A DNA stretch of 64,000 bases from sequence record OQ870555.1, one strand, 5' to 3'. The stretch comes from Escherichia phage PECP14. The position numbers and the translations under genes were made by a program. The notes under the pieces are model-generated. The model ran no database searches. It was given only the letters and a program-made list of their open reading frames with translations, and was not told the DNA's origin. This document shows, piece after piece, positions 2,471 to 63,256 of this stretch (its first letter is position 1; each line of letters begins with the position of its first letter).

Positions 2471-3238
2471 TTATTCAGCAGCCGCAGCTTTTGCATCCAG
2501 TTTAGCACGCTTAGCGGCACCATCATAGTCCTTAGCAACCAGACCACGACGAGACAGCATAGATTTAACACCGCGCTCAGACTTACCAGTTTTCTCAGCG
2601 ATCTCAGCAACAGTCATGTTAGCCAGATCCAGACCTTCTAACAGATCTTCACGAGTTTTAGCACTTGAAGTTTCCTGTACCGGCATAGCAGCGATACGAC
2701 CTTCACGAAGCAGACTCAGAGCTTTACCACGGATCTGCTTAATATTGCGACCGAAGTGAGCAGCGATAGCTTCAATAGTAGCACCAGCAACAACCTGATT
2801 AACGAAATCAGTTTCTTCGTCAGGAGTGAAGGAACGAACAGCAGCAGCTTTTTCGGTTGGCTTAACAGAAGCAGTCATTTCCAGACTCAGGATCTTACCC
2901 TGTACCTGCTTAGCACCGAACTGACCACCAGCTACAGCAGCAGCGATTTCAGCGTAAGTATACTGACCAGCATGAGCGTTCAGGAAATCAACCAGTTCAG
3001 CTTCCTGCTCAGGAGTCCACGGGGATTTCTGTACTTCGTTTGCTTTCTGTACTTCGAAACCTTCTTTACGCAGCTTAGAGCCAACAGAGCGAGCGGTAAC
3101 GTCTTTGCCAGTCTCGGTAGCCAATTCAGCAGCGATAGCAGCTACTTGTTCTTGAGAGATTACAGCAACACCCAGAGCAGTGGCTTTTGCTTTCAGAGAC
3201 TCGGTTACACCTTCTACGTTCCAGTTCAGTTTAGACAT
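2471..3238 (-). CDS. hypothetical protein with three HTH-like repeats
   Basis: three repeated segments (YAEIAAAVAGG.., IEAIAAHFGRN.., VAEIAEKTGKS..); E. coli-optimal codon bias. Confidence 0.5.
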   Translation of the reverse strand: MSKLNWNVEGVTESLKAKATALGVAVISQEQVAAIAAELATETGKDVTARSVGSKLRKEGFEVQKANEVQKSPWTPEQEAELVDFLNAHAGQYTYAEIAAAVAGGQFGAKQVQGKILSLEMTASVKPTEKAAAVRSFTPDEETDFVNQVVAGATIEAIAAHFGRNIKQIRGKALSLLREGRIAAMPVQETSSAKTREDLLEGLDLANMTVAEIAEKTGKSERGVKSMLSRRGLVAKDYDGAAKRAKLDAKAAAAE

Positions 3239-10700: not shown

Positions 10701-11196
10701 AACAATACTCCTATGTTGGTTATTCGGATATCTTTCTTTAGGACTATTCAAAAGAATAGAACAACTATTACTACCATTTACACAAACATTAATCATCATC
10801 AAGCAGTATGAATAAGTTATCATACCTCAGTGCTGCGCTCTCTTAACTCTTATCCAGATCAGAACCTAGGTCATTGGCCGCTAAGCCGATTCTGATTGCC
10901 CTCACTATCCTATTGGTAGGTGGCTACTGGACGTGTCACCATTCGCTGCTCTTTTCGTTCGCACCCCCATATAAAGCTCTGCCTATATAACGAGCTAAAT
11001 ATGCACGGTTTGGATTTACCTTTCCGAATTCAGGGTACGCAGATCACTTAATTGATAATTAACTAATGCAGTATAAACACTAGTAATAGTTAAAACAACC
11101 CTTAATGGGGCAGCCTAACTGTTCCGTATTGCGGATTGTAAACAAGAAAAATTAGCAAAATCAATTTTTACTAATGTCTCTCAATTCAATATAAAT

Positions 11197-11225
11197 ATTA
11201 TATCAAGATTTTGAGCATCCTGCAA
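11197..11225 (-). promoter_or_regulatory. leftward early promoter followed by long leader
   Basis: minus strand TTGCAG-17-TATAAT; ~500 nt ORF-free before the helicase ORF. Confidence 0.45.
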
Positions 11226-11316
11226 GTAAAATTTTTCCGAAGGTGCTATCAGTGTCTTTGAGCACAGAGAAAACCGAGTCAAAACGACTCGGTAATCAGG
11301 ATTGAGCTAATGAAAA

Positions 11317-25408: not shown

Positions 25409-25432
25409 GATGGGGCGAAAGCCCCATATACT
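25409..25432 (+). terminator. GAAA-tetraloop hairpin (terminator/stability element)
   Basis: GGGGCGAAAGCCCC; same hairpin recurs at 25689-25704. Confidence 0.4.
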
Positions 25433-25464
25433 AACTCTTTCTCTGACTAATTAAGGATATTTTT

Positions 25465-25680
25465 ATGTTCTCTAAGAAACCACGTTCCGTTACTGAAATC
25501 GTTGCTTCCTTTACCACTATTACTGATGAACTTCAAGCTCGTATTGAAGCTGACCAGAAAACTGCTGCTGATATTCAGAAACAGCAGGAAGAACTCGCTC
25601 TGAAACTGGCTGAAACCAATAAGAGTGAAAAATCTGCTCAAACTATTAAGGAAAATATCCTTAAACTGCTGGACAAGTAA
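25465..25680 (+). CDS. hypothetical small coiled-coil protein
   Basis: ORF with SD; between two GGGGCGAAAGCCCC hairpins. Confidence 0.45.
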   Translation: MFSKKPRSVTEIVASFTTITDELQARIEADQKTAADIQKQQEELALKLAETNKSEKSAQTIKENILKLLDK

Positions 25681-25688
25681 TTTAAATC

Positions 25689-25712
25689 AGGGGGCGAAAG
25701 CCCCTCTTATTT
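25689..25712 (+). terminator. GAAA-tetraloop hairpin (terminator/stability element)
   Basis: GGGGCGAAAGCCCC + CTTATTT. Confidence 0.4.
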
Positions 25713-25721
25713 GGAGAAACT

Positions 25722-25934
25722 ATGCGTAACTTCGTTGCAAAGAATGATTTTAACCGTGCTAGCACTCACAAGTCTGCTAGAGACTACACTCGTCTTTCTA
25801 AACATGAGCTTCTAGAAGAAATCATGGAAGAAAACTGGGATGTTAGTGAAAATGGAACAGACCTGTTTGAAGAAGAGGAACTTCCTCTGAAAGACCCCAA
25901 ACAGTGGGAGTCTATTAAAGAGACAGCTCTTTAA
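25722..25934 (+). CDS. hypothetical protein
   Basis: ORF. Confidence 0.4.
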   Translation: MRNFVAKNDFNRASTHKSARDYTRLSKHELLEEIMEENWDVSENGTDLFEEEELPLKDPKQWESIKETAL

Positions 25935-25964
25935 TAGTTTTCTACAACAATAAAGGACATAATT

Positions 25965-27612: not shown

Positions 27613-27996
27613 TAATTTAAAAGACTAGTAAATCGGTAGACGAAAGCCCAAGCATCTTACCTCGCAGCAGCGGTTGAAATACGAGGTTAAATAAGACCGC
27701 TGACCATACTATAAAGTATAATCTATTGGAGATTATGTTTATTACATCAGACATTTAATCTGACACGTAAAAACAAAAGGTCGTTGGTAGTACCAACACA
27801 ACTTCAAAGATCAACGCTCAAGTATGAAAGCTGAAAAGTTAAAAGCACTCAAACTTCTAACCTTCTAAAGCTAAAAGATGCAAAGTATTCGTTGATGATT
27901 CAAACCCTAGATCAAAGGTACATGGCTCATAAGATATGGCCTGTGGCGCCTCTAGGCTGTTTATCGGTTTACTAGTCTCTCAATTTAAAAATGTAT

Positions 27997-28025
27997 TTGC
28001 TAATTAGTTTAGTTTTCTGTATAAT
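27997..28025 (+). promoter_or_regulatory. early promoter cassette
   Basis: TTGCTA-17-TATAAT + ...TAAATTGATGAGA. Confidence 0.55.
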
Positions 28026-28055
28026 ATATTTTTAAATTGATGAGACGAGGCTATT

Positions 28056-28378: not shown

Positions 28379-28828
28379 ATGAAGGCAGCTTTGCTTTTAA
28401 TAGCTGCCCTAACCTATAGCTTCAATAGTCATGCGACCTACGACTCAAAGCAGATTGATTGCATTGCAAAAAATATCTACTTCGAAGCACGAGGTGAGGG
28501 CACTAAAGGAATGATCGCAGTTGCACAGGTTACTAAAAACCGTGTTAACTCTGGTACTTTTCCTGATTCTTACTGTAAAGTAGTATATCAGTCTAACCAG
28601 TTCTCTTGGGTGGCCAAGAGACCAAAAGTTGATAAAACCGATGAGGCTTGGCAAGTTGCTAAGAATTTAGCTAGAGTGATATACTACGTTGATTTACCAC
28701 AAGATCCAACACATGGAGCGTTATACTTCCATAGTGGTAAAGATAAACCGTACTGGACAAAGAAGTTTAAGAAAACAACGAAGATTCAAGGCCATACGTT
28801 TTACAAGCCTGTGGTTAAGAAAACTTAA
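28379..28828 (+). CDS. SleB/CwlJ-type cell-wall hydrolase, secreted
   Basis: signal peptide MKAALLLIAALTYSFNSHA; NIYFEARGE...AVAQVTKNRV...QFSW motifs. Confidence 0.7.
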   Translation: MKAALLLIAALTYSFNSHATYDSKQIDCIAKNIYFEARGEGTKGMIAVAQVTKNRVNSGTFPDSYCKVVYQSNQFSWVAKRPKVDKTDEAWQVAKNLARVIYYVDLPQDPTHGALYFHSGKDKPYWTKKFKKTTKIQGHTFYKPVVKKT

Positions 28829-28837
28829 AAAATTCGA

Positions 28838-28866
28838 TTGCTTAAAGCCTTAAATTTCTGTATAAT
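28838..28866 (+). promoter_or_regulatory. early promoter cassette
   Basis: TTGCTT-17-TATAAT + ATAAATTAATGAGAGGA. Confidence 0.55.
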
Positions 28867-28897
28867 ACTTTCATAAATTAATGAGAGGAAGCGAAAT

Positions 28898-29068: not shown

Positions 29069-29517
29069 TGGAAGAGAATATTCTAGATGTTTTGCGTAGG
29101 GCTTTGCAGGAATCTAAGGTTGATGGTTCTGATAAAGAAGTAGCTAAAAGCTACCAGACCATAATCGGAGATCTTCAGCGTGTTGATAAAGACTTCATTA
29201 CTTCTGAACAGTTTGTATCTTATCTAAAAGCTCAACTGAAAAGCATTAATCAGACGAAAGCTAAACTTCACGGTCAAGACCTTGATAATTATAGCTTGCA
29301 GTCTGCTCAGTATGAATATATACTGAACAAATGGTTACAACAGTATCTGCCGCCTCAGCTTTCTGATTCTGAGATTCGCAAATACTTTGCAGAATTAGTT
29401 AAGTTGAACCCTGGGATTACGAAGGGTATGCTGATGAAAGCGATTAAGGAAGAATTCCCTGGTCGTTATGATGGTGGTATTGCTGCTCAAGTTGCTGGCG
29501 AATTCAATAAAAATTGA
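29068..29517 (+). CDS. GatB/YqeY-domain-like protein
   Basis: C-terminal GMLMKAIKEEFPGRYDGGIAAQVAGEF. Confidence 0.4.
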   Translation: MEENILDVLRRALQESKVDGSDKEVAKSYQTIIGDLQRVDKDFITSEQFVSYLKAQLKSINQTKAKLHGQDLDNYSLQSAQYEYILNKWLQQYLPPQLSDSEIRKYFAELVKLNPGITKGMLMKAIKEEFPGRYDGGIAAQVAGEFNKN

Positions 29518-29518
29518 T

Positions 29519-29547
29519 TTGCTAAACGCTTCAAAATTCTGTATAAT
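29519..29547 (+). promoter_or_regulatory. early promoter cassette driving a non-coding region
   Basis: TTGCTA-17-TATAAT; no ORF downstream until tRNA-Arg at 30382. Confidence 0.55.
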
Positions 29548-29569
29548 AGATTCATAAATTAGAGAACAG

Positions 29570-30381
29570 CGAGCCGATTACGCTGAGTGAGTTTAGTGAT
29601 TCCTAATAGGATAGCTATTCCACTGAATAGAGTCGGTGAGTTGGAGACTAGTAAGTACTCTGAGAGAGGCTACGAGCTAACGCTTATTGCTATTGATAGG
29701 GAACTGAAAATCTGCGGAAAACTCGGGAGCTGTCCCGAAATCTCGTAAACTCTTCTCTAGTTTATGTTAGTGGGGTGTCGAACTGACTTATGTGATAACA
29801 CTGCCAGATGCTCACAGGCTGACATTGAGCTTTACTGCTCCTTCTGGAAAGAATCGGATAACTCGGGCTTATACCGGATAAGCATTCGCTGCTGGAGTAC
29901 ATACTATGACGGTTCAGGAGGTACGCCACCTGATCAGTATTAGGTTAGAATCGAAACAGCTAAACCACGAGGAAACCTGACGGCCTCAACCAAACTCGGA
30001 ACTCGGGATCACTGCCTAGTGTGTACCCCGTTTAACCTGAGACTAGGCATCCAGCTTCGCATCGAAAATCGGAGGTGCGATTCTAACAGACCGCGTAACT
30101 ATGAGAGTGGGAAACGCTGACATGAGAGATGTCACTAATGGTGCCCAATAGTACAGGTAATTCGCGATAATTCCTGTTGAGCGGCAGCAGTAGGCTGGGA
30201 GTCATGACCTAAGCCTAACCGAGTTCTTCACATACGGAGAACATAACCACAAAGTCACCCTGACTTAAACTGGAAGATATTGTCTGACGGAAGGGCTGCA
30301 GAGCTTAATCTGAGGGGGCTGACCCTACCTACCGTCGGGTATCTTTAAGAGCTTTTATAAGAGTTCTTAAAAATACCTAAA
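29570..30381 (+). ncRNA. candidate long structured non-coding RNA / leader co-transcribed with tRNA-Arg
   Basis: ~810 bp downstream of an early promoter with no ORF of 60 aa or more on either strand; visibly GC-richer than flanking coding DNA. Confidence 0.35.
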
Positions 30382-30456
30382 CGGGGTGTAGTCTAAGGGA
30401 TAGGCAGGAGTCTTCTAAATTCCTTTATGCAGGTTCGAATCCTGTCACCTCGGCCA
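30382..30456 (+). tRNA. tRNA-Arg(TCT)
   Basis: hand-folded cloverleaf; AC loop CTTCTAA; T-arm GCAGG-TTCGAAT-CCTGT; CCA encoded. Confidence 0.6.
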
Positions 30457-30694
30457 ATTTTATTAACTGCTAGGAAAATAAAGTGAAAACACGATATATA
30501 GTAAAAGTAGTAGGTGAACATTCACAAGTAAATACCACCGATGTTACAGCGCTAGCATTTGAAGTAGTCTCCGGTATAGTCATATTTCATAACGGAGATA
30601 TCAAAGCTCCTGAATTTGCTGTGGATGCTAGCCTGTTTATTTCTGCAACTAAAGTAACTGTAGTAGCTAACTCTTCTAAATAATAAGGAAATAT

Positions 30695-33656: not shown

Positions 33657-34712
33657 ATGATTAAGACTGGTCTAGTAATTGGTAAGTTCGCACCATTAAC
33701 GCGTGGTCATATTAACCTAATAAACACAGCAGCAACTATGTGTGAACGAGTTATTGTTGTAGTTAGTCATGATAATCGTTGGCTGGATAAGCAGAACACA
33801 CGTGATCAGGAAGTATTACAGTTAAAGAATCGACTTCGTTGGTTAGAACAAACTTACGCGGATATTGAGCACGTTTCGGTAGAGTACATTATTGAAGATG
33901 ATATTCCTGAATATCCGAATGGTTGGCCGGAATATGCTAGAATCCTTAATGAAAATTATGGACATTTGCCTGAGATCACCATTTTCTCTAGCGAACTAGA
34001 CTATGATGCAGAATATAAGAAATATCTGCCGAAGTTTGGTCATTATATTGTAGATTCTGATCGGACTCGTGTTCCAATCTCAGCTACAATGATTCGTAAT
34101 GATCTTATGAAGTATTGGGAGTTTCTTCCTAGCGTAGTTCGTAAAGATTACGTGCGTAAGGTTGTAATCATTGGGACTGAAAGCTCAGGCAAAACAACTT
34201 TAACAAAGTACCTTGCGAAATTATATAATACTTCGTGGGTAGAAGAATATGGTCGTACTTACTGCGAAGTTGATCTAGTTGGTAATGAAGAACTCCTGAC
34301 TAGCGAGGACTATAATAAAATTGCATTCAGGCACAAAGAGCTAGAGTTTGAGGCAGAACGTACTGCAAATAAGATCATGTTTGTAGACACAAATGCTTTC
34401 ATTACAGAGTTTTATCACAGACTTTACGAGCATCGTAAAAATCCGGTTGTAACAGCTATTGCTAAAGAAGAGCATTATGATTTAGTTATAGTTTTAGCAC
34501 CTACTGTTAAGTGGGTAGATGATGGTTTACGTATTAACTCCGATCGTTCAATTACTTCTGAACTGTTCGAGCAGATGAAGAAAGAATTTCCTAATCAGTT
34601 TCCAGAAGGGCGTACTGTATATATTGACTCCCCGGACTATAAGGTTCGTATGGACGAAGCAGTAAACGCAGTAGACTGGCTGATTCATCACTTTAACGTT
34701 GGAGAGTTTTAA
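33657..34712 (+). CDS. NadR-like NMN adenylyltransferase / ribosylnicotinamide kinase
   Basis: GKFAPLTRGH (HxGH nucleotidyltransferase) and GTESSGKTTL (Walker A kinase). Confidence 0.65.
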   Translation: MIKTGLVIGKFAPLTRGHINLINTAATMCERVIVVVSHDNRWLDKQNTRDQEVLQLKNRLRWLEQTYADIEHVSVEYIIEDDIPEYPNGWPEYARILNENYGHLPEITIFSSELDYDAEYKKYLPKFGHYIVDSDRTRVPISATMIRNDLMKYWEFLPSVVRKDYVRKVVIIGTESSGKTTLTKYLAKLYNTSWVEEYGRTYCEVDLVGNEELLTSEDYNKIAFRHKELEFEAERTANKIMFVDTNAFITEFYHRLYEHRKNPVVTAIAKEEHYDLVIVLAPTVKWVDDGLRINSDRSITSELFEQMKKEFPNQFPEGRTVYIDSPDYKVRMDEAVNAVDWLIHHFNVGEF

Positions 34713-34713
34713 T

Positions 34714-35391
34714 ATGACTAACTATCTTGTAAATGACTTTAAAAACTGGAAACCTTTGGAATATCTGTGGCTGTTTATAGCAGTCGCCTTTATTAGTTTA
34801 GCTAACTATAATGGTACAGCTCTAGATTGGGCTACTGCAATAACCAACGTGGTTTGTGTTATTCTGGTTGCAAAAGGACGTGTTTCCAACTATATTTGGG
34901 GCTTAGTTGGTGTTCTTACCTATGGTATTACAGCTTTAAACGCAGATCTTTATGGTAACGCTGCACTAAACCTGCTATACTACGTTCCTATGCAGTTTTA
35001 TGGAATGTACTTATGGCATAAAAATAAGCCAAGTAATCTGCCAGATGTTCCAACTAAGGTTCTGACTAAAGCCCAAGCTCTGCTGACTCTAGGGATTCTA
35101 GCAGTAGCCACGTTAGGGTATGGTAGTTTCTTAGCTACTACGGCTGATCCATTCCCAATGTTGGATGCATTTACTGCGGTAGGTAGTGTGATCGCTATGT
35201 GGCTTATGGTTAAGCAGTATGCCGAGCAGTGGCTGATCTGGATTGCTATTAACATTGGTACTGTATATATTTGGCTTGTAACTGCCCAGTCTACGGGTGC
35301 TTCTTATGCAATCCTAGCAATGTGGCTGGTGTTCTTAGGTAACTCTATTATGGGAGCCTATAAAGGCTACTTTGTAAGAGTTAACAAATAA
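34714..35391 (+). CDS. pnuC: PnuC-like nicotinamide riboside transporter
   Basis: polytopic membrane protein with PnuC-like W/Y-rich helices; directly follows NadR-like gene. Confidence 0.6.
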   Translation: MTNYLVNDFKNWKPLEYLWLFIAVAFISLANYNGTALDWATAITNVVCVILVAKGRVSNYIWGLVGVLTYGITALNADLYGNAALNLLYYVPMQFYGMYLWHKNKPSNLPDVPTKVLTKAQALLTLGILAVATLGYGSFLATTADPFPMLDAFTAVGSVIAMWLMVKQYAEQWLIWIAINIGTVYIWLVTAQSTGASYAILAMWLVFLGNSIMGAYKGYFVRVNK

Positions 35392-35396
35392 AGTAG

Positions 35397-35425
35397 TTAT
35401 AGCCCTCTAAGCGAGGGCTATTATA
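35397..35425 (+). terminator. hairpin terminator after pnuC
   Basis: ATAGCCCTC-TAAGC-GAGGGCTAT. Confidence 0.5.
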
Positions 35426-35438
35426 CAGAAATTTTCAC

Positions 35439-35467
35439 TTGCTTTATATAGAAAATTTCTGTATAAT
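35439..35467 (+). promoter_or_regulatory. early promoter cassette
   Basis: TTGCTT-17-TATAAT; near-identical leader to the 33598 copy. Confidence 0.55.
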
Positions 35468-35497
35468 ATATTTATAAATTTGAGAGAGGAATCAAAC

Positions 35498-35794
35498 ATG
35501 AAACACATTGTACTTGCATTGACTCTAGTATCTACTTCTGTATTTGCTGCTCCACAACAGGAACTTTGTCAAGTTCAAGTTTGTAATAAGCTAGAACGAT
35601 TTACTCTAGACATTTGGTCGCACATTAAAGATAATATGGGTGAACAGTGTTTTGATATTGTTCTGCCAAAAGAACAAGCTGTTCCTGGGGCTGTTCTCAG
35701 CTCAGAATCACGTTGGTGGCAGGGTTCTTCTATCAACCCAACTAAGAAGTCAGTGACACGTATCAAACAAGTATATCAGTGCAATGTTCAGTAA
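35498..35794 (+). CDS. small secreted Cys-containing protein
   Basis: signal peptide MKHIVLALTLVSTSVFAAP. Confidence 0.45.
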   Translation: MKHIVLALTLVSTSVFAAPQQELCQVQVCNKLERFTLDIWSHIKDNMGEQCFDIVLPKEQAVPGAVLSSESRWWQGSSINPTKKSVTRIKQVYQCNVQ

Positions 35795-35802
35795 AATTTC
35801 AC

Positions 35803-35831
35803 TTGCTTAATGCCGAAATTTTCTGTATAAT
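35803..35831 (+). promoter_or_regulatory. early promoter cassette preceding tRNA-Ser
   Basis: TTGCTT-17-TATAAT. Confidence 0.55.
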
Positions 35832-35845
35832 ATATTCATAAATTC

Positions 35846-35939
35846 GGAAGATTAACCCTAAAGGTAAGGGAGCTGTTTGCTAAACAGCCAGTAGCTGTGG
35901 AGACACGGTGTGCCAGTTCGAATCTGGCATCTTCCTCCA
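35846..35939 (+). tRNA. tRNA-Ser(GCT)
   Basis: acceptor GGAAGAT/ATCTTCC; AC loop TTGCTAA; long variable arm; follows promoter. Confidence 0.7.
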
Positions 35940-35944
35940 AATTT

Positions 35945-36022
35945 GGTTCTCAAGCTCATTTGGTATGAGCCGTCGCCTCATAAGCGAAAGGTAGGTAGGT
36001 TCGAATCCTCCGGGAGCCACCA
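35945..36022 (+). tRNA. tRNA-Met/Ile2(CAT)
   Basis: D-stem GCTC/GAGC; AC loop CTCATAA; T-loop TTCGAAT; CCA encoded. Confidence 0.55.
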
Positions 36023-36039
36023 ATTAACTAGGAGACTAT

Positions 36040-36225
36040 ATGTCTAGATTCTATGAAATGAAGAAAGCATTAGAAGAATGTCGGTGTAAGGATTGTCATG
36101 GTGGTGGTAGGCAGGATGATGCAGAACCTGGGGATATTTTCTGTAGAGAATGGGAATGTCCTACATGTAAAGGTACTGGTATCAACCCTGAATATGCAAT
36201 TTGTCTAGACATTGAGCGAGGCTAA
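36040..36225 (+). CDS. small Cys-rich (zinc-ribbon-like) protein
   Basis: CRCKDC...CREWECPTC. Confidence 0.4.
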   Translation: MSRFYEMKKALEECRCKDCHGGGRQDDAEPGDIFCREWECPTCKGTGINPEYAICLDIERG

Positions 36226-36565
36226 GATGGATATTTTTACTACTCCGGCAATAAACCTTTTAGGTGTTGGCTTGTTCCAAGCTACGGTGTATCGTACTGA
36301 TGATTCTACTGATGTGGTAACGTTCATCGTACCTGAGTTCTTCCTAGAAAAGTTCTTTGAAGAGTTTGAGCAGTTCCGTGAAGAACACAATGCTCATTCC
36401 GATATGGAAGATCTAGCAGCTATGTTCCCTGTGGTTTACGGCTATATCTTTGAAGGTAATGGCCTAGATCTTAATAAATCTGAACTCGTTGAACTTAATT
36501 GGGGCATCAATTTTGAAGTTGGCTCTCCATTCCCTCGATATTTCCAGGGTTTAGAGATTCGCTAA
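36212..36565 (+). CDS. hypothetical protein
   Basis: ORF. Confidence 0.45.
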   Translation: MSEAKMDIFTTPAINLLGVGLFQATVYRTDDSTDVVTFIVPEFFLEKFFEEFEQFREEHNAHSDMEDLAAMFPVVYGYIFEGNGLDLNKSELVELNWGINFEVGSPFPRYFQGLEIR

Positions 36566-36573
36566 GATTACAT

Positions 36574-36650
36574 GGGGGTGTAATCGAATTGGCATAGGTA
36601 CTGGACTTAAAATTCAGGTTTTGTGGGTTCGAATCCCACCACCCCTACCA
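36574..36650 (+). tRNA. tRNA, anticodon TAA (isotype uncertain)
   Basis: acceptor GGGGGTG/CACCCCT; T-arm GTGGG-TTCGAAT-CCCAC; AC loop CTTAAAA with short variable loop. Confidence 0.5.
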
Positions 36651-36665
36651 AATTAAGGAAATAAA

Positions 36666-36788
36666 ATGAAAGCTATTAAGAAAGCACTACGTAAATTTAT
36701 GTACTGTCGTTTTCATAGCATCAAGACTTCAACTAATGGTACGACTTATGATCGCTATGATCCTAAGTTTGGCTTACATTCTAAATAA
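36666..36788 (+). CDS. small hypothetical protein
   Basis: 40-codon ORF with AAGGAAA SD after a tRNA. Confidence 0.3.
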   Translation: MKAIKKALRKFMYCRFHSIKTSTNGTTYDRYDPKFGLHSK

Positions 36789-36801
36789 CTGGAGATAATA
36801 A

Positions 36802-37008
36802 ATGGCTAATCCTGAAATTACTGCACAGCGCTTTATGCTGAAAGGTATTATTGCTGAAGCAGGCATGACAGAAGAAGTTGCAGATTTTCAAAAGCAGTTC
36901 CTAAATATTCTCACTCAAGCCAAAGAGCTAGGAGAGAAAGAACATGGCGCGGCTATTATGGCAATCACATTGGTTGGGCTTGATCTGGCAGAAGAATCAG
37001 GAGTTTAA
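36802..37008 (+). CDS. hypothetical protein
   Basis: ORF. Confidence 0.4.
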   Translation: MANPEITAQRFMLKGIIAEAGMTEEVADFQKQFLNILTQAKELGEKEHGAAIMAITLVGLDLAEESGV

Positions 37009-37038
37009 CTCCTCCAAGCAGAAATTTTAAAAATGTAC

Positions 37039-37068
37039 TTGCTTTTTACTTAAGATTTCTGCTATAAT
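37039..37068 (+). promoter_or_regulatory. early promoter cassette
   Basis: TTGCTT-18-TATAAT. Confidence 0.5.
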
Positions 37069-37098
37069 AGTTATATAAATTGATGAAGGAGTTAACGA

Positions 37099-37374
37099 AT
37101 GTCAAAACGTGTTACTGCAACTGGTGTTGAAAGTGCTGTTTGTAAATCCTGGGGTGGCTGGGAAGGTGAGATTGAATGGCTTTATTTCTACGATGTAGAA
37201 CTTCTGCCGGAAGTCAAAGCTAAATGTGTGGAAGCTGGTATGGCTCCTGATGCAAAGGCTGATATCGAAATCACCATGACTAAGCTAGAAGGTCGTGTAA
37301 TTACGCTCAATGATGATTATGAAGAAGTGTTCGAGCTTCCATTCAAACTGAGTGTCACCCCTAGCTTCGAGTAA
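37099..37374 (+). CDS. hypothetical protein
   Basis: promoter cassette + AAGGAG SD. Confidence 0.45.
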   Translation: MSKRVTATGVESAVCKSWGGWEGEIEWLYFYDVELLPEVKAKCVEAGMAPDAKADIEITMTKLEGRVITLNDDYEEVFELPFKLSVTPSFE

Positions 37375-37410
37375 CTGATATAGCACTGAGCAAGTTCTTT
37401 AAAATTTGAC

Positions 37411-37439
37411 TTGCTCAGTCCTTCAAAACTTGATATAAT
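37411..37439 (+). promoter_or_regulatory. early promoter preceding tRNA cluster
   Basis: TTGACTTGCTC / TATAAT. Confidence 0.5.
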
Positions 37440-37503
37440 AGTTATCTAATTTGGAAAACATATTTAAAAGTGTTTAAACTAGTATTTGAATATTTCTAAA
37501 TAT

Positions 37504-37594
37504 GTTGGATTAGTATCGTAGAGGTAGCGAAGCAGACTGTAAATCTGCCGACTCGGAAGGGTCTCGGGTGGTTCGACTCCATCATCCAACACCA
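37504..37594 (+). tRNA. tRNA-Tyr(GTA)
   Basis: AC arm GCAGA-CTGTAAA-TCTGC; long variable arm. Confidence 0.6.
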
Positions 37595-37601
37595 AATTTA
37601 A

Positions 37602-37678
37602 GTCCTGTTAGACAAACTGGTAAAGTCACTACCCTTTCAAGGTAGGATTTGCGGGTTCGATCCCCGCACAGGACGCCA
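37602..37678 (+). tRNA. tRNA-Glu(TTC)
   Basis: acceptor GTCCTGT/ACAGGAC; AC loop CTTTCAA; T-arm GCGGG-TTCGATC-CCCGC. Confidence 0.7.
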
Positions 37679-37687
37679 AATTCTGCA

Positions 37688-37763
37688 TTCCTAGAGTGTT
37701 ACTGGACAGCATGTCGGTCTCCAAAACCGTACGGTCTAGGTTCGAGTCCTAGTAGGTTTGCCA
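37688..37763 (+). tRNA. tRNA-like, anticodon CCA (Trp?), non-canonical acceptor
   Basis: AC arm TCGGT-CTCCAAA-ACCGT and T-arm CTAGG-TTCGAGT-CCTAG are good but acceptor stem does not pair. Confidence 0.35.
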
Positions 37764-37769
37764 ATATTT

Positions 37770-37844
37770 GCACCTTTAGCTGAGATGGATTAGCGCTTGC
37801 CTGAAGAGCTTGAGAGGTTGGATCGTTACCAACGGGGTGCACCA
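37770..37844 (+). tRNA. tRNA-Phe(GAA)
   Basis: acceptor GCACCTT/GGGGTGC; AC loop CTGAAGA; T-arm GTTGG-ATCGTTA-CCAAC (atypical loop). Confidence 0.5.
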
Positions 37845-37846
37845 AT

Positions 37847-38134
37847 TTGAAGGAGATGCTGATGCATCCTGAAAACTTCTTTATTTACTGTGCGGATAAG
37901 TCACTGAAACGCAGAATTAACAAAGTCTATCATTATCGTGCTAGTCAACAGCCTTATGTTTATGCTTTTGATGGAGAAACCATTCCACTAGAGCAGTTGG
38001 CTTGTGATTACATGGTATTGAAGAACTTTGATGAGACAAAGATCTCAAGCGTTCATAATCGACAGAACCCATTAACGTGGAAGTATAAGAAGAAAAAGAA
38101 AGGCATCATATTTCTGAAAAATGTAGTTGCTTAA
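37847..38134 (+). CDS. hypothetical protein
   Basis: ORF after tRNA cluster. Confidence 0.4.
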   Translation: MKEMLMHPENFFIYCADKSLKRRINKVYHYRASQQPYVYAFDGETIPLEQLACDYMVLKNFDETKISSVHNRQNPLTWKYKKKKKGIIFLKNVVA

Positions 38135-38155
38135 CCGCTTAAAGTTCTGTATAAT
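38127..38155 (+). promoter_or_regulatory. early promoter cassette
   Basis: TTGCTT-17-TATAAT. Confidence 0.5.
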
Positions 38156-38184
38156 TATTACATAAATTGAACTGGAGAAGCAAC

Positions 38185-38409
38185 ATGACAGAACAAGAAT
38201 TGAAAGAACGTAAGCTGGTAATGCTTCGCTTACTAAACATTTTCTCTGGTATGGATGGTGGTATTGACTTCGTTAATCTACGTTGCTTTGTAGAAGAAGC
38301 AGAAGGTGAGGCTATCACTAGGATTCTTAAACATATGGGTTTGTTATTAGATGTTGCTAATGTGGCTACTCAATATAAGCTCGAAGATTTACCGGAGCGT
38401 GTTAAATGA
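38185..38409 (+). CDS. hypothetical protein
   Basis: promoter cassette + GGAGA SD. Confidence 0.4.
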   Translation: MTEQELKERKLVMLRLLNIFSGMDGGIDFVNLRCFVEEAEGEAITRILKHMGLLLDVANVATQYKLEDLPERVK

Positions 38410-38597
38410 AAATGTTAGTTAAATTTAAGTGTTGTGGTTCTGAACATATTTTCACTCGTTATAGAGAGTTTAAGATGTGTGAGTGTGGTAAGTCAGGCTA
38501 TGATGCTGGAGATGGCTATTATGCTAGATCTATAGGACATTATAAAGATCTAGAGTTTACTAATCTCGAAAAGCAAGATAAATCGACCGTTGGCTGA
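38406..38597 (+). CDS. small Cys-containing protein
   Basis: ORF overlapping previous stop. Confidence 0.4.
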   Translation: MKMLVKFKCCGSEHIFTRYREFKMCECGKSGYDAGDGYYARSIGHYKDLEFTNLEKQDKSTVG

Positions 38598-38659
38598 ATG
38601 GCTTAGGCGGAGGCCTGCAAAACCTCCTTATGTGAGTTCGAATCTCATGCGGTCGTCCA
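38584..38659 (+). tRNA. tRNA-Cys(GCA)
   Basis: acceptor CGACCGT/GCGGTCG; AC loop CTGCAAA; T-loop TTCGAAT. Confidence 0.6.
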
Positions 38660-38666
38660 AATTTTA

Positions 38667-38749
38667 GGGTCGTTAGCCAAGCGGTTTGGCGGTGGACTGT
38701 TAATCCATGTCGAAAGACAACGTAGGTTCGAATCCTACACGGCCCGCCA
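38667..38749 (+). tRNA. tRNA-Asn(GTT), extended variable region
   Basis: acceptor GGGTCGT/ACGGCCC; AC arm GTGGA-CTGTTAA-TCCAT; T-arm GTAGG-TTCGAAT-CCTAC. Confidence 0.55.
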
Positions 38750-38852
38750 TATTCTGTGTAGAGTTAAGTAAACCGGTAGCCAACCAGCTATCATTACTGA
38801 TATCGAATTCAGTCACAGATACCATTTTTCATTAACAACTGAGGAAATAGAT

Positions 38853-39038
38853 ATGACAACTCGTGCAATTGCTCGACTAGAAGCTGATCGTGATAATCTG
38901 ATTAATAATATTAAGGTTCGTGGTAATATTATTAAGGCTCTGAAAGCTGAACTTCTTGAAGAACTTCAAGGTCAAGTAGAGCGTCGTGAAGCTCTAAAAG
39001 AGGTTGAGGAAGCTATCGAAAAACTCAAAACTGAGTAA
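38853..39038 (+). CDS. small coiled-coil protein
   Basis: ORF with GAGGAAA SD. Confidence 0.4.
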   Translation: MTTRAIARLEADRDNLINNIKVRGNIIKALKAELLEELQGQVERREALKEVEEAIEKLKTE

Positions 39039-39047
39039 ATAAATTAT

Positions 39048-39124
39048 GCGATCGGGGCTGGCTTGGTAATGGTACTCCCCTGTCACGGGAGAGAATGTGG
39101 GTTCGAATCCCATCGGTCGCGCCA
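39048..39124 (+). tRNA. tRNA-Asp(GTC)
   Basis: AC arm CTCCC-CTGTCAC-GGGAG; T-arm GTGGG-TTCGAAT-CCCAT. Confidence 0.7.
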
Positions 39125-39138
39125 ATTTAGGCTATAGT

Positions 39139-39330
39139 ATGACACGCAAATATTTAGTTATTAAAGGTGAACATGCAGGACAAACTGTATACTCATTGAA
39201 ATTTCATGATTATGGTTTAGCCTCAGATGATACTCGATATACTGGAATAGAGCATACAAGTGTAACATTAGACGAAACAGGTGATTATCCTAGTTTTACT
39301 ATTCCTAAAGATTTCTTAAAAGAGATTTAA
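39139..39330 (+). CDS. hypothetical protein
   Basis: start moved downstream of tRNA-Asp. Confidence 0.4.
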   Translation: MTRKYLVIKGEHAGQTVYSLKFHDYGLASDDTRYTGIEHTSVTLDETGDYPSFTIPKDFLKEI

Positions 39331-39331
39331 T

Positions 39332-39408
39332 GCTTCCATAGCTCAACTGGTTAGAGCTACCGCCTCTTAAGCGGAGGGTTGAAGGTTCAAGTCCTTCTGG
39401 GAGTACCA
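39332..39408 (+). tRNA. tRNA-Lys(CTT)
   Basis: D-stem GCTC/GAGC; AC loop CTCTTAA; T-arm GAAGG-TTCAAGT-CCTTC. Confidence 0.6.
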
Positions 39409-39611
39409 AACAAATAGAGTAAAGGCTACAGTAGGTGCACCCTTACGGACTGCTACACCGGACTCTATTCATTAACAAACATTCTAGCGTGGTGGAGAGG
39501 GGACACCAGCTTGCCGAGGGTAGAAGCTCGTTCGATTCGAGTGAAAGAATGGTTCTCGTAAATCCGCACAAGTGATAGCAGGTTCAAGTCCTGCCTAGAT
39601 TGACTTATTAT
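39409..39611 (+). other. degenerate tRNA-like elements
   Basis: two T-arm-like hairpins (CTCG-TTCGATT-CGAG; GCAGG-TTCAAGT-CCTGC) with no complete cloverleaf. Confidence 0.3.
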
Positions 39612-39685
39612 GCGTTCGTAGTTAAAAGGTATAATTTTTGGTTGCCAACCAGAAGTTGAGGGTTCGATTCCCTCCGACCGCACCA
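39612..39685 (+). tRNA. tRNA-Gly(GCC)
   Basis: AC arm TTTGG-TTGCCAA-CCAGA; T-arm GAGGG-TTCGATT-CCCTC. Confidence 0.6.
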
Positions 39686-39933
39686 AATTTAGGTTTCTGC
39701 TTCCTAGAGAACGAACTCCTAGATAAACAAGGTGATGAGTTTCCGGCCGGTTCTAGTCGCTGAAAATCCTCCCGACCAGGTAGGTGTAAGTAAACGAAAG
39801 TTTACTTATTAAGTAAGTCCGACACATCGGCGGGTGTGTTCTAGTACTTAAAGAAGGTCTAGCAAACTTTCTCGCTAGCATGAGTTGATAGCTCGGTGAC
39901 TTACCTAATAAGTAAATTTATTAAAAAATGTAG

Positions 39934-39962
39934 TTGCTATTTAGCTTAATTCTCTGTATAAT
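39934..39962 (+). promoter_or_regulatory. early promoter preceding tRNA-Pro/Met cluster
   Basis: TTGCTA-17-TATAAT. Confidence 0.5.
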
Positions 39963-39994
39963 ATATTTTATAAAGTGAGTTAACAAAGAATATT

Positions 39995-40072
39995 CTCCGT
40001 GTAGCTCAGTTTGGCCAGAGCGTTTCGTTTGGGGCGATAGGGTCGGGGGTTCAAATCCTCCCACGGAGACCA
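39995..40072 (+). tRNA. tRNA-Pro(TGG)
   Basis: acceptor CTCCGTG/CACGGAG; D-stem GCTC/GAGC; AC loop TTTGGGG. Confidence 0.7.
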
Positions 40073-40078
40073 AACAAT

Positions 40079-40156
40079 TGCGGGTTAGATCTCTGGTAGA
40101 GATCGCTAGTCTCATAAGCTAGAAAGAGGTAGGTTCGATTCCTGCACCCGCTTCCA
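40079..40156 (+). tRNA. tRNA-Met(CAT), possibly initiator (1:72 mismatch)
   Basis: D-stem GATC/GATC; AC arm CTAGT-CTCATAA-GCTAG; T-arm GTAGG-TTCGATT-CCTGC. Confidence 0.55.
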
Positions 40157-40177
40157 ATTCAATAGAAGGATTTCGAA

Positions 40178-40342
40178 ATGAAATTATTTCGCTTAAAAGT
40201 AAGTGATCTACGTTCTAGTAAAGATCGTAAGAAGTATCTATTAGCCCATTACGGTAAAGATAAAAATGAAGTAATGGCGGAATTTGGTATTAATCATCCT
40301 TACTTGAAAGTCTACTCTATTAAAGAAGTATACATGTACTAA
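40178..40342 (+). CDS. small hypothetical protein
   Basis: 54-codon ORF between tRNAs. Confidence 0.3.
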   Translation: MKLFRLKVSDLRSSKDRKKYLLAHYGKDKNEVMAEFGINHPYLKVYSIKEVYMY

Positions 40343-40344
40343 AT

Positions 40345-40423
40345 AGATCGCTAGCTCAATTGGTTTAGCAGCACCCGGCTTTTAACCGGAAGGTTCTGGG
40401 TTCGAGTCCCAGGCGGTCTACCA
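40345..40423 (+). tRNA. tRNA-Lys(TTT)
   Basis: acceptor AGATCGC/GCGGTCT; AC loop CTTTTAA; T-arm CTGGG-TTCGAGT-CCCAG. Confidence 0.65.
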
Positions 40424-40440
40424 ATTTAAAGGAATTTGTT

Positions 40441-40758
40441 ATGAATATTAACAAAGTTCTAGAAACAATATCAGAAATGTCTGGTAGAGCTGGAAAACGC
40501 TTTACTGAACTATGTATTAAAAATCAAAAAGTACCAGAACATCAATGTCATTATTGTCGAGATTGTGAACAATACCATGAAATGTGTATGGTTGAAGATT
40601 GGGTCTGGAATCAGATAAGAAAAGAACAACCCAAAGATATTGTTCTATGTTTTACTTGTATGGAACGACGTTTAGGACGTAAAATTACTCTTAAAGATCT
40701 TAAACATGTTCCCTGTAACGCTCCTTACTTCATTGGCTTTAGAATGGAGAGATTTTAA
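40441..40758 (+). CDS. Cys/His-rich protein, possible HNH-type nuclease
   Basis: CHYCRDCEQYHEMC...CFTCMERR. Confidence 0.35.
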   Translation: MNINKVLETISEMSGRAGKRFTELCIKNQKVPEHQCHYCRDCEQYHEMCMVEDWVWNQIRKEQPKDIVLCFTCMERRLGRKITLKDLKHVPCNAPYFIGFRMERF

Positions 40759-40891
40759 TGACTATCTGGTTTTACTTAATGAAGCAGAAAATAAAAGATC
40801 CCTATGTATTCTCTGCCGATTTTACAATAGGTATGTTTATAGCAGGTTTCTGTGAATTTGTAGTTGAAGCCTACATTATAGGAAGTCTTTT

Positions 40892-40965
40892 GCTCGGTTA
40901 GTTTAATGGGAGAACCCCGTCTTTACACGGCGGTTGCGATAGTTCGATTCTATCACCGAGTACCA
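40892..40965 (+). tRNA. tRNA-Val(TAC)
   Basis: AC arm CCGTC-TTTACAC-GGCGG; T-arm GATAG-TTCGATT-CTATC. Confidence 0.65.
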
Positions 40966-40990
40966 ATTAACTCAAAATAAGGAATTGCAA

Positions 40991-41344
40991 ATGCAATTAT
41001 CAAGCAAGGTTCAAGGCTATTTCGGACATGTAACAATGGAGTTCGCTATCTCTAAAGGTTGGGACTTCGAACAAGATTTAGCTGAGTTCTACAAAGATAT
41101 TGATCTGAACGTACCGTACATGGGACTCTCAACTGGTCAAGAGATCACAGAAGCCGACGTGTTCAAGGCAAGTCAAGGTGAGGTAACACCTAGTTTTGCC
41201 GAGTTCTGGTTAGGTATCACACTGAAAGAAGATGCACCGGATAGTGGAGTACTAATGACTAGTATGCACTCTGGAAGCTCTGATTACCTTTTCGTTAGTG
41301 ACGTTAAGGAAATACAAGAAATCTGCAAAAATGTACTTGCTTGA
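40991..41344 (+). CDS. hypothetical protein
   Basis: ORF after tRNA-Val. Confidence 0.45.
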   Translation: MQLSSKVQGYFGHVTMEFAISKGWDFEQDLAEFYKDIDLNVPYMGLSTGQEITEADVFKASQGEVTPSFAEFWLGITLKEDAPDSGVLMTSMHSGSSDYLFVSDVKEIQEICKNVLA

Positions 41345-41365
41345 TGCTTAATTTCTTGTTATAAT
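41337..41365 (+). promoter_or_regulatory. early promoter driving a non-coding stretch
   Basis: TTGCTT-17-TATAAT; next ORF starts 360 bp downstream. Confidence 0.5.
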
Positions 41366-41725
41366 ATTTATATAAATTGATGTGAAAATAGCTGCCTAGA
41401 TATTAGGTGTATGACGTCTACACTAGCAGAGCTACCGAAAAAAGAGATCCTCAGGATAAACGCCGTAGCAAAATTAGTCTGATATCCATCAATTTAGTTC
41501 ACTAAGGTATTAGCTCGACCTAGGACTGGCTGCCAAAAAGCACGGTTGCAATTAGACCCATAATGGCGGGGGATACTTTGCAAGAAGTTCTAGATTAGTC
41601 CACTAGATTCAGCGGCAACTGAATAGTGTATCGGGTTTGTGGAGAGCGGTTATCCTCTACTGGCTAATGTCTGAGGGTAATACGCACACCGAGCTAATAG
41701 CCTTAGTAAACTAGAAGGAATATCT
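41366..41725 (+). ncRNA. candidate promoter-driven non-coding RNA
   Basis: 360 bp with no ORF after the promoter at 41337-41365; GC-rich. Confidence 0.3.
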
Positions 41726-41989
41726 ATGTTTGATCTTAAAGATATGGCTAAGAAACTAATGTCGCAACGTTATCAACAAAGAACCCTCCATAAACGAGTT
41801 TCCGATATGAAGAAACGTTGCAATAATGCTAAGTATTATAATAGTCTTAATAAACTATCTGATATAGATCTTGCTAAAACTGAAGCAATATATAATCACT
41901 TAGTAGTAGAATCTGATATAGTGAATAAAGATATTGCTAGGCTAGAAGCTCAGATTGTAGCAACTGTTCTCGATATGTATAGAGAATAA
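41726..41989 (+). CDS. hypothetical protein
   Basis: ORF. Confidence 0.45.
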   Translation: MFDLKDMAKKLMSQRYQQRTLHKRVSDMKKRCNNAKYYNSLNKLSDIDLAKTEAIYNHLVVESDIVNKDIARLEAQIVATVLDMYRE

Positions 41990-60828: not shown

Positions 60829-60829
60829 T

Positions 60830-61063
60830 ATGGAAATTATAGCAAGTGTCTTAGTAGTTATGTTATTCATCGTAATACTTGTATCTTTCGTTATTATGCG
60901 TAGAGCTAGAGAACTAGCGGAGGACGTAATGAAGTTACGTGGCGAGGTGGCTACTCTTAAATTACAGCGTGAGTCTCTTAAGTTATTTGTGGCTCAAGGT
61001 AGCCTAGAACATACAGCGGAAGACTTCATCGTATATCTTAAACGTTACATGGGAATCAAATAA
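60830..61063 (+). CDS. small membrane protein
   Basis: ORF. Confidence 0.4.
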   Translation: MEIIASVLVVMLFIVILVSFVIMRRARELAEDVMKLRGEVATLKLQRESLKLFVAQGSLEHTAEDFIVYLKRYMGIK

Positions 61064-61248
61064 TGGAAACACTACTTCTTGTACTACTAGGTGGCTCACT
61101 CTTAACCATTCTAGGCTTGATAATTGTATGCAGTCGCCTCAATGTTAAGAATCTAGAATTAAATAGTGAGAATGAGATTCTTAACCGAGAAATTAAACAA
61201 CATAATATCGCAGCTCGTAAGCTATTAGATAAACTGGAGAATAAATAA
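61063..61248 (+). CDS. small membrane protein
   Basis: ORF. Confidence 0.4.
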   Translation: METLLLVLLGGSLLTILGLIIVCSRLNVKNLELNSENEILNREIKQHNIAARKLLDKLENK

Positions 61249-62933: not shown

Positions 62934-62950
62934 ACGTTAACAAAATCTTC

Positions 62951-62980
62951 TTGACAACTCATTGCGGCACATGTTATAAT
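62951..62980 (+). promoter_or_regulatory. sigma70 consensus-like promoter facing the repeat region
   Basis: TTGACA-18-TATAAT; no ORF downstream within the window. Confidence 0.5.
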
Positions 62981-63256
62981 AATCTCATAGATTAAAAACA
63001 ACTCTTGTTTTGAACTCTAGGGGCGATGATTATTACACTTAGTATTACGTCTATACGTTGCGACAGCACGAGTATAGATCTAATTACTAAGTCTTCCGTA
63101 ATACTCACGCGCCCCACGGGTAAGCTCTCATGAAATGGGGGCTACTTTACTTTTTTATTTATATGAATATATTTAAAGGCAATATTTGTGTTCAAGATGA
63201 TACACTTGTTGCCTCCGCTCTTCCTAGGATGGCACAACACTTTCTAGTAGACTCCT

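Follow-up and report, generated by a model that had tools for sequence, protein, structure and literature searches.

We provide evidence that a segment of the Escherichia phage PECP14 genome (sequence record OQ870555.1) that lacks open reading frames (ORFs) is an ortholog of the RNAX gene of phage T5 and encodes a stable RNA that is large, modular, highly structured, and trans-acting; we put the probability of this reading at roughly 0.8. The segment occupies positions 29554 to 30381 (~828 nt), on the + strand, of a 64,000-nt stretch of DNA, which we call the window and to which all coordinates refer unless a relative is named. Synteny and homology to annotated rnaX genes, the absence of an ORF, covariation, and strand-specific folding place it in the RNAX family of large structured non-coding RNAs. 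The existence of RNAX is already on record, and our analysis adds its fold, its modularity, and the breadth of its conservation. GenBank has listed RNAX for some twenty years as a 'stable RNA' without explanation, and full-text searches of the literature for RNAX, for a stable RNA of T5, and for structured RNA in Demerecviridae gave no paper that discusses it.

An earlier note on this DNA, made from its letters alone, had offered three readings of the segment: a stable structured RNA under an early promoter, a long leader of a processed tRNA precursor, or a decayed gene. The first of these is borne out by the rnaX annotation of related phages, by compensatory helices found across T5-like genomes, and by the folding z-score of the sense strand. 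The second survives solely as the probable co-transcription of the RNA with tRNA-Arg and its separation from the tRNA by RNase P. The third finds no support: there is neither a conserved frame nor Pfam similarity, and no relative carries a conserved intact gene at this place, the ORFs called there in relatives being unconserved.

The RNAX locus and its spread among T5-like phages

The window belongs to a T5-like phage (Demerecviridae) whose nearest records are Salmonella phages, 99.6 to 99.7% identical. At the homologous locus, the GenBank records of T5, BF23, and DT571/2 carry a misc_RNA named rnaX and described as "RNAX, stable RNA with unknown functions." The T5 reference gives the order 'promoter P 16-17', rnaX (719 nt), tRNA-Arg, the flanking genes being YqeY-like upstream and SPFH/Band_7 downstream. 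The same rnaX annotation recurs in DT571/2 (636 nt), in the T5 tRNA-region record, and in BF23 (784 nt), and in T5, BF23, and DT571/2 the feature ends at the base preceding tRNA-Arg. The window copy likewise lies between a P16-17-type promoter and tRNA-Arg(UCU) and shares its strand with the tRNA island; Pfam gives a weak YqeY match for the upstream ORF and a clear Band_7 match for a downstream ORF, so synteny with T5 holds. By blastn, blocks of the promoter/leader, linker, central, and 3' domains are 77 to 92% identical to T5 and DT571/2, and T5 scores 106.6 bits against our covariance model of the 3' domain. The copies of T5, BF23, Salmonella phage 5, and DT571/2 have the same locus order as the window copy and central and 3' blocks 77 to 87% identical to it, and T5-type RNAX shares its terminal hairpin, S1 loop, and junction motifs.

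The features from which the earlier note had started all proved sound. The early sigma-70 promoter (29519 to 29547, + strand) consists of a -35 element TTGCTA (29519-29524), a 17-nt spacer, and a -10 element TATAAT (29542-29547), and matches 10 of 12 consensus positions in a consensus scan. Its position is conserved among relatives, and the homologous sequence is labelled 'promoter P16-17' in the T5 and BF23 records. Promoter-like matches in a 3-kb region numbered 5, against 5.1 expected from shuffles, and the case for the RNAX promoter therefore rests on conservation and outside annotation rather than on enrichment. Transcription is predicted to start at A29554, as judged from spacing and from what we take to be a likeness to T5 PN25-type promoters. 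The promoter unit (29508-29561) is paralogous to a unit at 28828-28890, upstream of a DUF7616 ORF, and to T5 'promoter P-D/E 33'; T5-type early promoters recur as such units of ~60 nt.

The longest ORF in all six frames of 29554-30381 has 59 aa, and the three longest ORFs found no match in Pfam. The interval 29518-30586 is the second-longest gap without ORFs of at least 80 aa in the 64-kb window, exceeded by the gap at the tRNA cluster alone. The GC content of the segment, 0.463, exceeds the window mean of 0.403 and stands at the 97th percentile among stretches of 828 nt. The tRNA-Arg gene (anticodon UCU, tct in the DNA) lies on the + strand at 30382 to 30456, as called by ARAGORN and by Rfam (tRNA, 49.3 bits); its CCA end is encoded, and its 5' end sets the 3' end of RNAX. 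It is the only tRNA recognised here, since neither ARAGORN nor Rfam found one within the ORF-free segment itself.

A large untranslated region upstream of protein genes might instead be a structured, cis-acting 5' untranslated region, or a pseudogene, which regulates or formerly encoded the proteins downstream (the SPFH/Band_7 protein at 30695 and, before it, a 66-aa ORF at 30483). A former gene could have fitted into the region, and a scan called no intrinsic terminator on the + strand between RNAX, tRNA-Arg, and the downstream ORFs, so the transcript probably reads through. The intervening tRNA would be excised from any such transcript, however, no riboswitch or leader family of Rfam matched, and the downstream genes vary by lineage while the RNA persists; we consider this reading hardly credible. 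Rfam 15 holds no family for RNAX: a scan, which the earlier note had suggested, matched tRNAs alone in the window and in five relatives, at gathering thresholds as well as at lax E-values, and a riboswitch was rejected on that ground. We also rejected a tmRNA, ARAGORN having found none in the window or in the relatives' regions, and a CsrB-like GGA sponge, GGA motifs being by hand count no commoner than composition predicts.

Sensitive blastn found RNAX-homologous blocks in 523 phage records, 111 of which cover the whole window copy. Three Demerecviridae lineages carry RNAX, and the spread takes in Markadamsvirinae, Klebsiella Sugarlandvirus, Pectobacterium Mccorquodalevirinae phages, Yersinia phiR2-01, and Pantoea AAS21. 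Every representative that we fetched has it (Tequintavirus, Epseptimavirus, Sugarlandvirus, the Pectobacterium phages DU_PP_V and My1, phiR2-01, AAS21, and phage Eos), at lengths that range across the family from ~650 to ~1340 nt. Several RNAX blocks have changed less than the protein gene next to them: in comparison with Klebsiella phage K32, they are 82 to 100% identical, and the adjacent endolysin gene 70%. Searches beyond these phages relied on short patterns. Scans of IMG/VR returned isolate genomes only, and a metagenome scan with the terminal-hairpin pattern gave 81 matches, 6 of them real and all from T5-like contigs. The S1-loop pattern, run over 100,044 representative bacterial and archaeal genomes, gave 109 chance matches and no relative, its sole Enterobacterales match being a coding region. 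As far as the patterns used can detect, the family does not extend beyond T5-like phages that infect Enterobacterales.

RNAX stays linked to tRNA-Arg(UCU) in every lineage examined, with ORFs sometimes intervening, and this raises the question of whether the RNA merely forms a long 5' leader or spacer in the tRNA-Arg precursor, one that guides processing or insulates the tRNA and is degraded after RNase P cleavage. That constant linkage, the direct abutment of RNAX on tRNA-Arg, and the dispensability of the locus in the deletion mutant T5st0 would all suit a leader. We nonetheless regard it as unlikely: lengths of 830 to 1340 nt, invariant loops, more than 15 covarying helices, and conservation above that of neighbouring genes go beyond the needs of tRNA processing, and the other 27 tRNAs that ARAGORN finds in the window have no such leaders. 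ORFs of 0.3 to 0.75 kb, moreover, split RNAX from the tRNA in Klebsiella phages, AAS21, oselot, and S132, and the RNA is still conserved there. The annotators of T5 and BF23, for their part, name RNAX a stable RNA.

Evidence for a conserved fold

The helices of the 3' domain, S1 to S7, were modelled by sequence comparison; a covariance model was built from five window-type sequences, and 39 family members were aligned to it. Across the 3' domain, 93.4% of pair cells are standard pairs, and 33 of its 52 pairs have changed on both sides. None of 500 shuffles reached any of the five measures that we used, and sliding the 3' partners by 1 to 3 columns cut pairing to 34 to 48% and compensatory pairs to 7 to 13. 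A second model, of the central piece 30100-30195, has 93.3% of its cells paired and compensatory changes at 5 of 15 pairs. RNAalifold, given a MAFFT alignment that had not been fitted to our model, independently recovered S1, S2, S3, S6, and S7. The folding signal is specific to the strand: the sense strand has a z-score of -2.77 (0 of 20 dinucleotide shuffles folded as well), against -0.44 for the antisense strand. By these sequence comparisons, RNAX is under strong structural selection across the T5 family.

The choice of alignment and of scale mattered to this analysis. With MAFFT, S4 was shifted in the T5-type sequences and the region around S2 was aligned wrongly in the Klebsiella phages, and the covariance-model alignment was used for that reason. 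A full-length MAFFT alignment of 45 sequences led RNAalifold to a global fold that could not be relied on, the variable modules having no homology to one another. An all-against-all helix finder was overwhelmed by 'covariation' of G-U pairs, and we therefore analysed the RNA module by module.

The 3' domain (30192-30379) is the most widely conserved part of RNAX. It opens with hairpin S1 (30192 to 30216, + strand), whose stem covaries, with compensatory changes at all 4 outer pairs. The S1 loop, GGGAGUCAUGACC, contains the palindromes UCAUGA and GUCAUGAC and is invariant across 32 sequences save for one substitution in My1, which makes it a candidate site for a kissing loop or tertiary contact. 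The interval 30223 to 30338 (+ strand) then holds S2 (30223-29/30236-42), with compensatory changes at 6 of 7 pairs; the conserved sequence AUAACCAC (30243-50); S3 (30253-57/30261-65), which is invariant; the conserved single strand UAAACUGGAAGAUA (30266-79); and a three-way junction. The junction is formed by S4 (30284-94/30328-38), S5 (30295-97/30302-04), and S6 (30313-16/30323-26), and 9 of 11, 2 of 3, and 4 of 4 of their pairs, respectively, show compensatory changes.

The terminal hairpin S7 (30339 to 30376, + strand) has 14 pairs and the loop UUUUAUAAGA, and it ends 5 nt before the tRNA. It is kept in all relatives except AAS21, with 97.9% of cells paired and compensatory changes at 6 pairs. 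We rejected S7 as an intrinsic terminator: its AU-rich stem is followed by CUAAA rather than by a U-tract, and the scan called no terminator on the + strand. The hairpin is near-palindromic, so that the covariance model matches it on both strands, and the loop UUUUACGAGA is also conserved.

Modular architecture and its variation

RNAX is built from invariant joints and exchangeable modules, with variable hairpins set on single-stranded joints and loops that do not vary. Extraction of the hairpins that lie between conserved anchors brings this out: P2 occurs in 3 variants, P5 in 14, Pa in 13, Hg in 7, Ht in 4, and S2 in 12, and every one of these variants folds into the same kind of hairpin as the others at its position. 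The P5 stem, for example, occurs as UCGGGA/UCCCGA, CCCGGA/UCCGGG, CUCAGU/ACUGAG, and UUGGGA/UCCCAA. Joints of the form (U/A)AAAC(U/C) precede many of the helices, and the heptamer AACTCGG occurs four times in RNAX (29718-29724, 29858-29864, 29993-29999, and 30001-30007), against ~0.05 expected by a rough estimate; conservation of the repeats in relatives is only partial.

The 5' domain (29554 to 29765, + strand) is closed by helix P1 (29554-29566/29753-29765), which would sequester the predicted 5' end. P1 is present in the minimum-energy fold and is kept in T5, in the Klebsiella phages, and in DU_PP_V, where AAAGAA/TTCTTT replaces AGAGAA/TTCTCT. Within the domain lie P2 (29567-71/29581-85), a conserved junction (29624-29642), and P5 (29723-28/29733-38) with a GCUG loop, and we infer a candidate pseudoknot between 29573-79 and 29631-37. 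The domain can be lost whole, as in T5, DT571/2, and Gostya9, in which the P1 stub alone remains. It is followed by a highly conserved linker (29766 to 29805, + strand), which reads UAGUGGGGUGUCGAA...ACUUAUGU..AACACUGCC and is 84 to 87% identical even when compared with Klebsiella phages.

The linker leads into a slot that different clades fill with unrelated structures. The window clade has a hairpin defined by alignment (29804 to 29847, + strand; CCAGA...UCUGG), and most relatives have in its place a tRNA-like module of ~72 nt (2557-2628 of the T5 locus, L001; 1705-1776 of L005; 1693-1764 of L011; and 1959-2029 of L013). ARAGORN calls the module 'Ser(act)', 'SeC', or 'Leu(tag)', and Rfam scores it as a tRNA above threshold (29.7 to 38.3 bits). 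Its T-arm is canonical and its anticodon arm odd, and no CCA end was seen in the aligned sequences. The module is probably a structural domain of RNAX and not a decoding tRNA. A module of this kind could also suggest that the whole region consists of tRNA genes left over from the island, now decayed and functionless, the more so as annotation pipelines label it tRNA-Ser, Sec, Leu, OTHER, or Undet. Only this one module is tRNA-like, however, the window copy has none, the remaining ~750 nt are without similarity to tRNA, and the compensatory changes mark strong structural selection, the opposite of decay; we give the idea of tRNA remnants very little credence.

The central domain (29846 to 30191, + strand) carries Pa (29867-72/29878-83) and Pb (29891-94/29957-60), the latter enclosing a clade-specific insert and covarying between GCUG/CAGC and GCUA/UAGC. 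Farther along are Ht (30057-61/30076-80), with the conserved AUCGGAGG and a Shine-Dalgarno-like GGAGG in its loop; Hg (30118-23/30129-34); Hi (30142-45/30183-86); and Hh (30153-57/30173-77), whose conserved loop contains CGCGAUAA and the palindrome CGCG. Two long-range pairings are suggested by sequence comparison. The first, LR1, would join GUGG at 29770-73 to CCAC at 30247-50 and thereby close the central domain; in DU_PP_V and My1, its partners change from GUGG to ACGG and from CCAC to CCGU. The second, LR2, would join CCAC at 29965-68 to GUGG at 30107-10. RNAalifold proposed another pairing, of CCA at 30247-49 with UGG at 30271-73; these bases are invariant and DU_PP_V contradicts the pairing, and we preferred LR1.

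The window copy (828 nt) differs in length from those of T5 (719 nt), DT571/2 (636 nt), and BF23 (784 nt). The window copy has a 5' domain of ~190 nt that is missing from T5 and DT571/2; it is without the embedded tRNA-like module of T5; and it has the clade-specific insert inside Pb but not an insertion that T5 carries. That insertion, of 83 nt (~3000-3090 of the T5 locus), lies between direct repeats, AGTCACCTTGAC(T/A)TAAACTGGAA, and duplicates S3 and the conserved joint, which explains why the T5 copy is longer than that of DT571/2. Extra modules of 100 to 200 nt are found in Klebsiella phages, TrudiGerster, and S132.

The edges of the gene have also received protein-coding DNA. In oselot, S132, KFSSM, and My1, the terminal hairpin is separated from tRNA-Arg by ORFs of ~170 aa, which are recorded as hypothetical proteins but are placed much as free-standing homing endonuclease genes are; KFSSM also has, where the 5' domain would be, an ORF that is annotated as such an endonuclease. 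The ORFs inserted near RNAX are at 2087-2596 of locus L004, 2211-2723 of L007, 918-1400 and 2048-2557 of L008, and 1981-2526 of L152. Because such ORFs sit at the 3' boundary and at the 5' domain of KFSSM, the boundaries of the RNAX gene look like insertion hot spots. The 'hypothetical protein' ORFs called on either strand inside RNAX (1858-2178 of L009, 1151-1829 of L005, and 1287-2481 of L010) are another matter. They are not conserved, the 106-aa ORF of Klebsiella phage K32 being frameshifted in phage Re28, and they are probably spurious. Annotation pipelines at present populate the RNAX region with spurious small ORFs and odd tRNA calls.

Elsewhere in the window, a stretch directly after tRNA-Trp (37770-37841, + strand) scores 33.4 bits as a tRNA in Rfam, above the gathering score, and is not called by ARAGORN; it may be an extra or degenerate tRNA. 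Five other stretches of 420 to 590 nt outside the tRNA cluster lack an ORF of at least 80 aa in six frames (10824-11316, 25428-25964, 27613-28055, 60829-61247, and 62934-63518), and none matched Rfam at gathering thresholds.

Maturation, function, and known large RNAs

We propose that host RNA polymerase would transcribe RNAX and tRNA-Arg(UCU) early, as a single precursor, from the strong T5-type promoter, a step to which the promoter and the direct abutment of the two genes point. RNase P acts on tRNA precursors, and a cut at 30381/30382, the 5' end of the tRNA, would release RNAX; the established action of the enzyme and the annotated ends of rnaX in T5, BF23, and DT571/2 are consistent with this. 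The buried ends of the released RNA would stabilise it: P1 pairs its first 13 nt, and S7, ending 5 nt from the 3' end, would protect the terminus that RNase P generates. Ends paired in this way would explain why RNAX accumulates as a stable RNA. The body would consist of separately closed domains, namely, a dispensable 5' domain, the slot, a central domain that a long-range helix probably closes, and a 3' domain conserved nearly everywhere.

Clues to function come from what phages can do without. The st0 deletion (33667-41891 in the T5 tRNA-region record) removes rnaX (40848-41566), and T5st0 is routinely grown; RNAX is therefore dispensable on laboratory E. coli. Because the 5' domain and the tRNA-like module are expendable, whatever the RNA does must depend on the linker together with the central and 3' domains. 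The nearest parallels that we know of are GOLLD and ROOL, which are phage-encoded RNAs found near tRNA islands; in GOLLD, the 5' region varies, the 3' region is conserved, and the linker sometimes contains a tRNA, and both RNAs form RNA-only cages, for which cryo-electron microscopy structures exist (Kretsch et al., bioRxiv 10.1101/2024.12.08.627333; Weinberg et al. 2017, PMC5737381). By analogy, RNAX might be the T5-family counterpart of these RNAs, an abundant folded RNA particle that would work with the tRNA island in the takeover of translation or in countering tRNA-directed defences, a tentative proposal that we hold at well below even odds. Such a particle possibly self-associates through its invariant palindromic loops and would be accessory, not essential to the lytic cycle; our best guess is that it would be protected from nucleases. 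The invariant loops (S1 GUCAUGAC, Hh CGCG, and Ht GGAGG) could serve as sites of self-association or of contact with a partner.

Several points weigh against this account of RNAX and should temper it. The alignments that show covariation were fitted to their own model and are biased in its favour. Both the start of transcription and maturation by RNase P are steps that we infer, and the stability of RNAX is taken from database annotation for which our searches found no primary publication. LR1 and LR2 are suggested by substitutions in one lineage only, that of DU_PP_V and My1. Invariance of the palindromic loops means that covariation cannot test their pairing, and one of them is substituted in My1. 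T5st0 is viable without the locus, and any function of RNAX is therefore conditional. Neither the 5' domain, which is absent in T5, nor the tRNA-like module, which is absent in the window, can be the functional core. Finally, an Rfam 15 cmscan of 29548-30385 at E-values up to 10 found no match to any covariance model, those of GOLLD and ROOL included.

That last result also bears on whether RNAX is a highly diverged true homolog of GOLLD or ROOL, as its shared genomic context, its GOLLD-like domain logic, and its similar size (0.65 to 1.3 kb) might lead one to suppose. The covariance models remained unmatched with lax filters in the window copy and in five diverse relatives alike, the relatives giving tRNA matches alone at E-values up to 10, and we saw no common sequence motif; true homology is very unlikely. 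In the absence of a covariance-model match, we have filed RNAX as an analogue, and not a member, of GOLLD or ROOL. A more speculative extension of the analogy, and one that we rate as improbable enough to be offered with reserve, is that RNAX represents a third, independent class of giant ornate phage RNA, whose palindromic loops would assemble it into an RNA-only particle acting on tRNAs, ribosomes, or tRNA-targeting defences. Should that be true, T5, a classical and genetically tractable phage of E. coli, would open the role of such RNAs to direct test.

Stable phage RNAs tied to tRNAs have a smaller precedent. The tRNA cluster of T4 encodes stable RNAs, species 1 and 2, of ~120 to 140 nt, which are co-transcribed with tRNAs and freed by the tRNA-processing machinery. 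RNAX, likewise a stable phage RNA tied to tRNAs, is 5 to 10 times larger than these and multi-domain, and we detected no sequence relation. Few non-coding RNAs of bacteria or phages are so large and intricate, among them the rRNAs, group II introns, GOLLD, ROOL, and OLE (PMC5737381). ROOL, with a mean length of 581 nt, is an ornate RNA of phages and prophages that is found near tRNAs, is abundant, and is non-essential (bioRxiv 10.1101/2024.12.08.627333; PMC5737381). RNAX resembles both GOLLD and ROOL in context, size, domain logic, and dispensability, and it is longer than ROOL, with many more invariant nucleotides than have been described for that RNA.

The resemblance to GOLLD, which is one of traits and not of descent, extends to a phage location at a tRNA island, a variable 5' region, an optional linker tRNA, and a conserved 3' region. 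The two differ in their hosts, GOLLD being found mainly in Lactobacillales, Mycobacterium, and marine or lake metagenomes and RNAX only in Demerecviridae of Enterobacterales. They differ as well in what is known of assembly: GOLLD has been shown to form a 14-mer cage, whereas the invariant palindromic loops of S1 and Hh are the sole hints that RNAX offers. With E. coli and Salmonella hosts, easily engineered phages, and the T5st0 deletion mutant at hand, RNAX is an unusually accessible model for the large ornate RNAs with which we have compared it.

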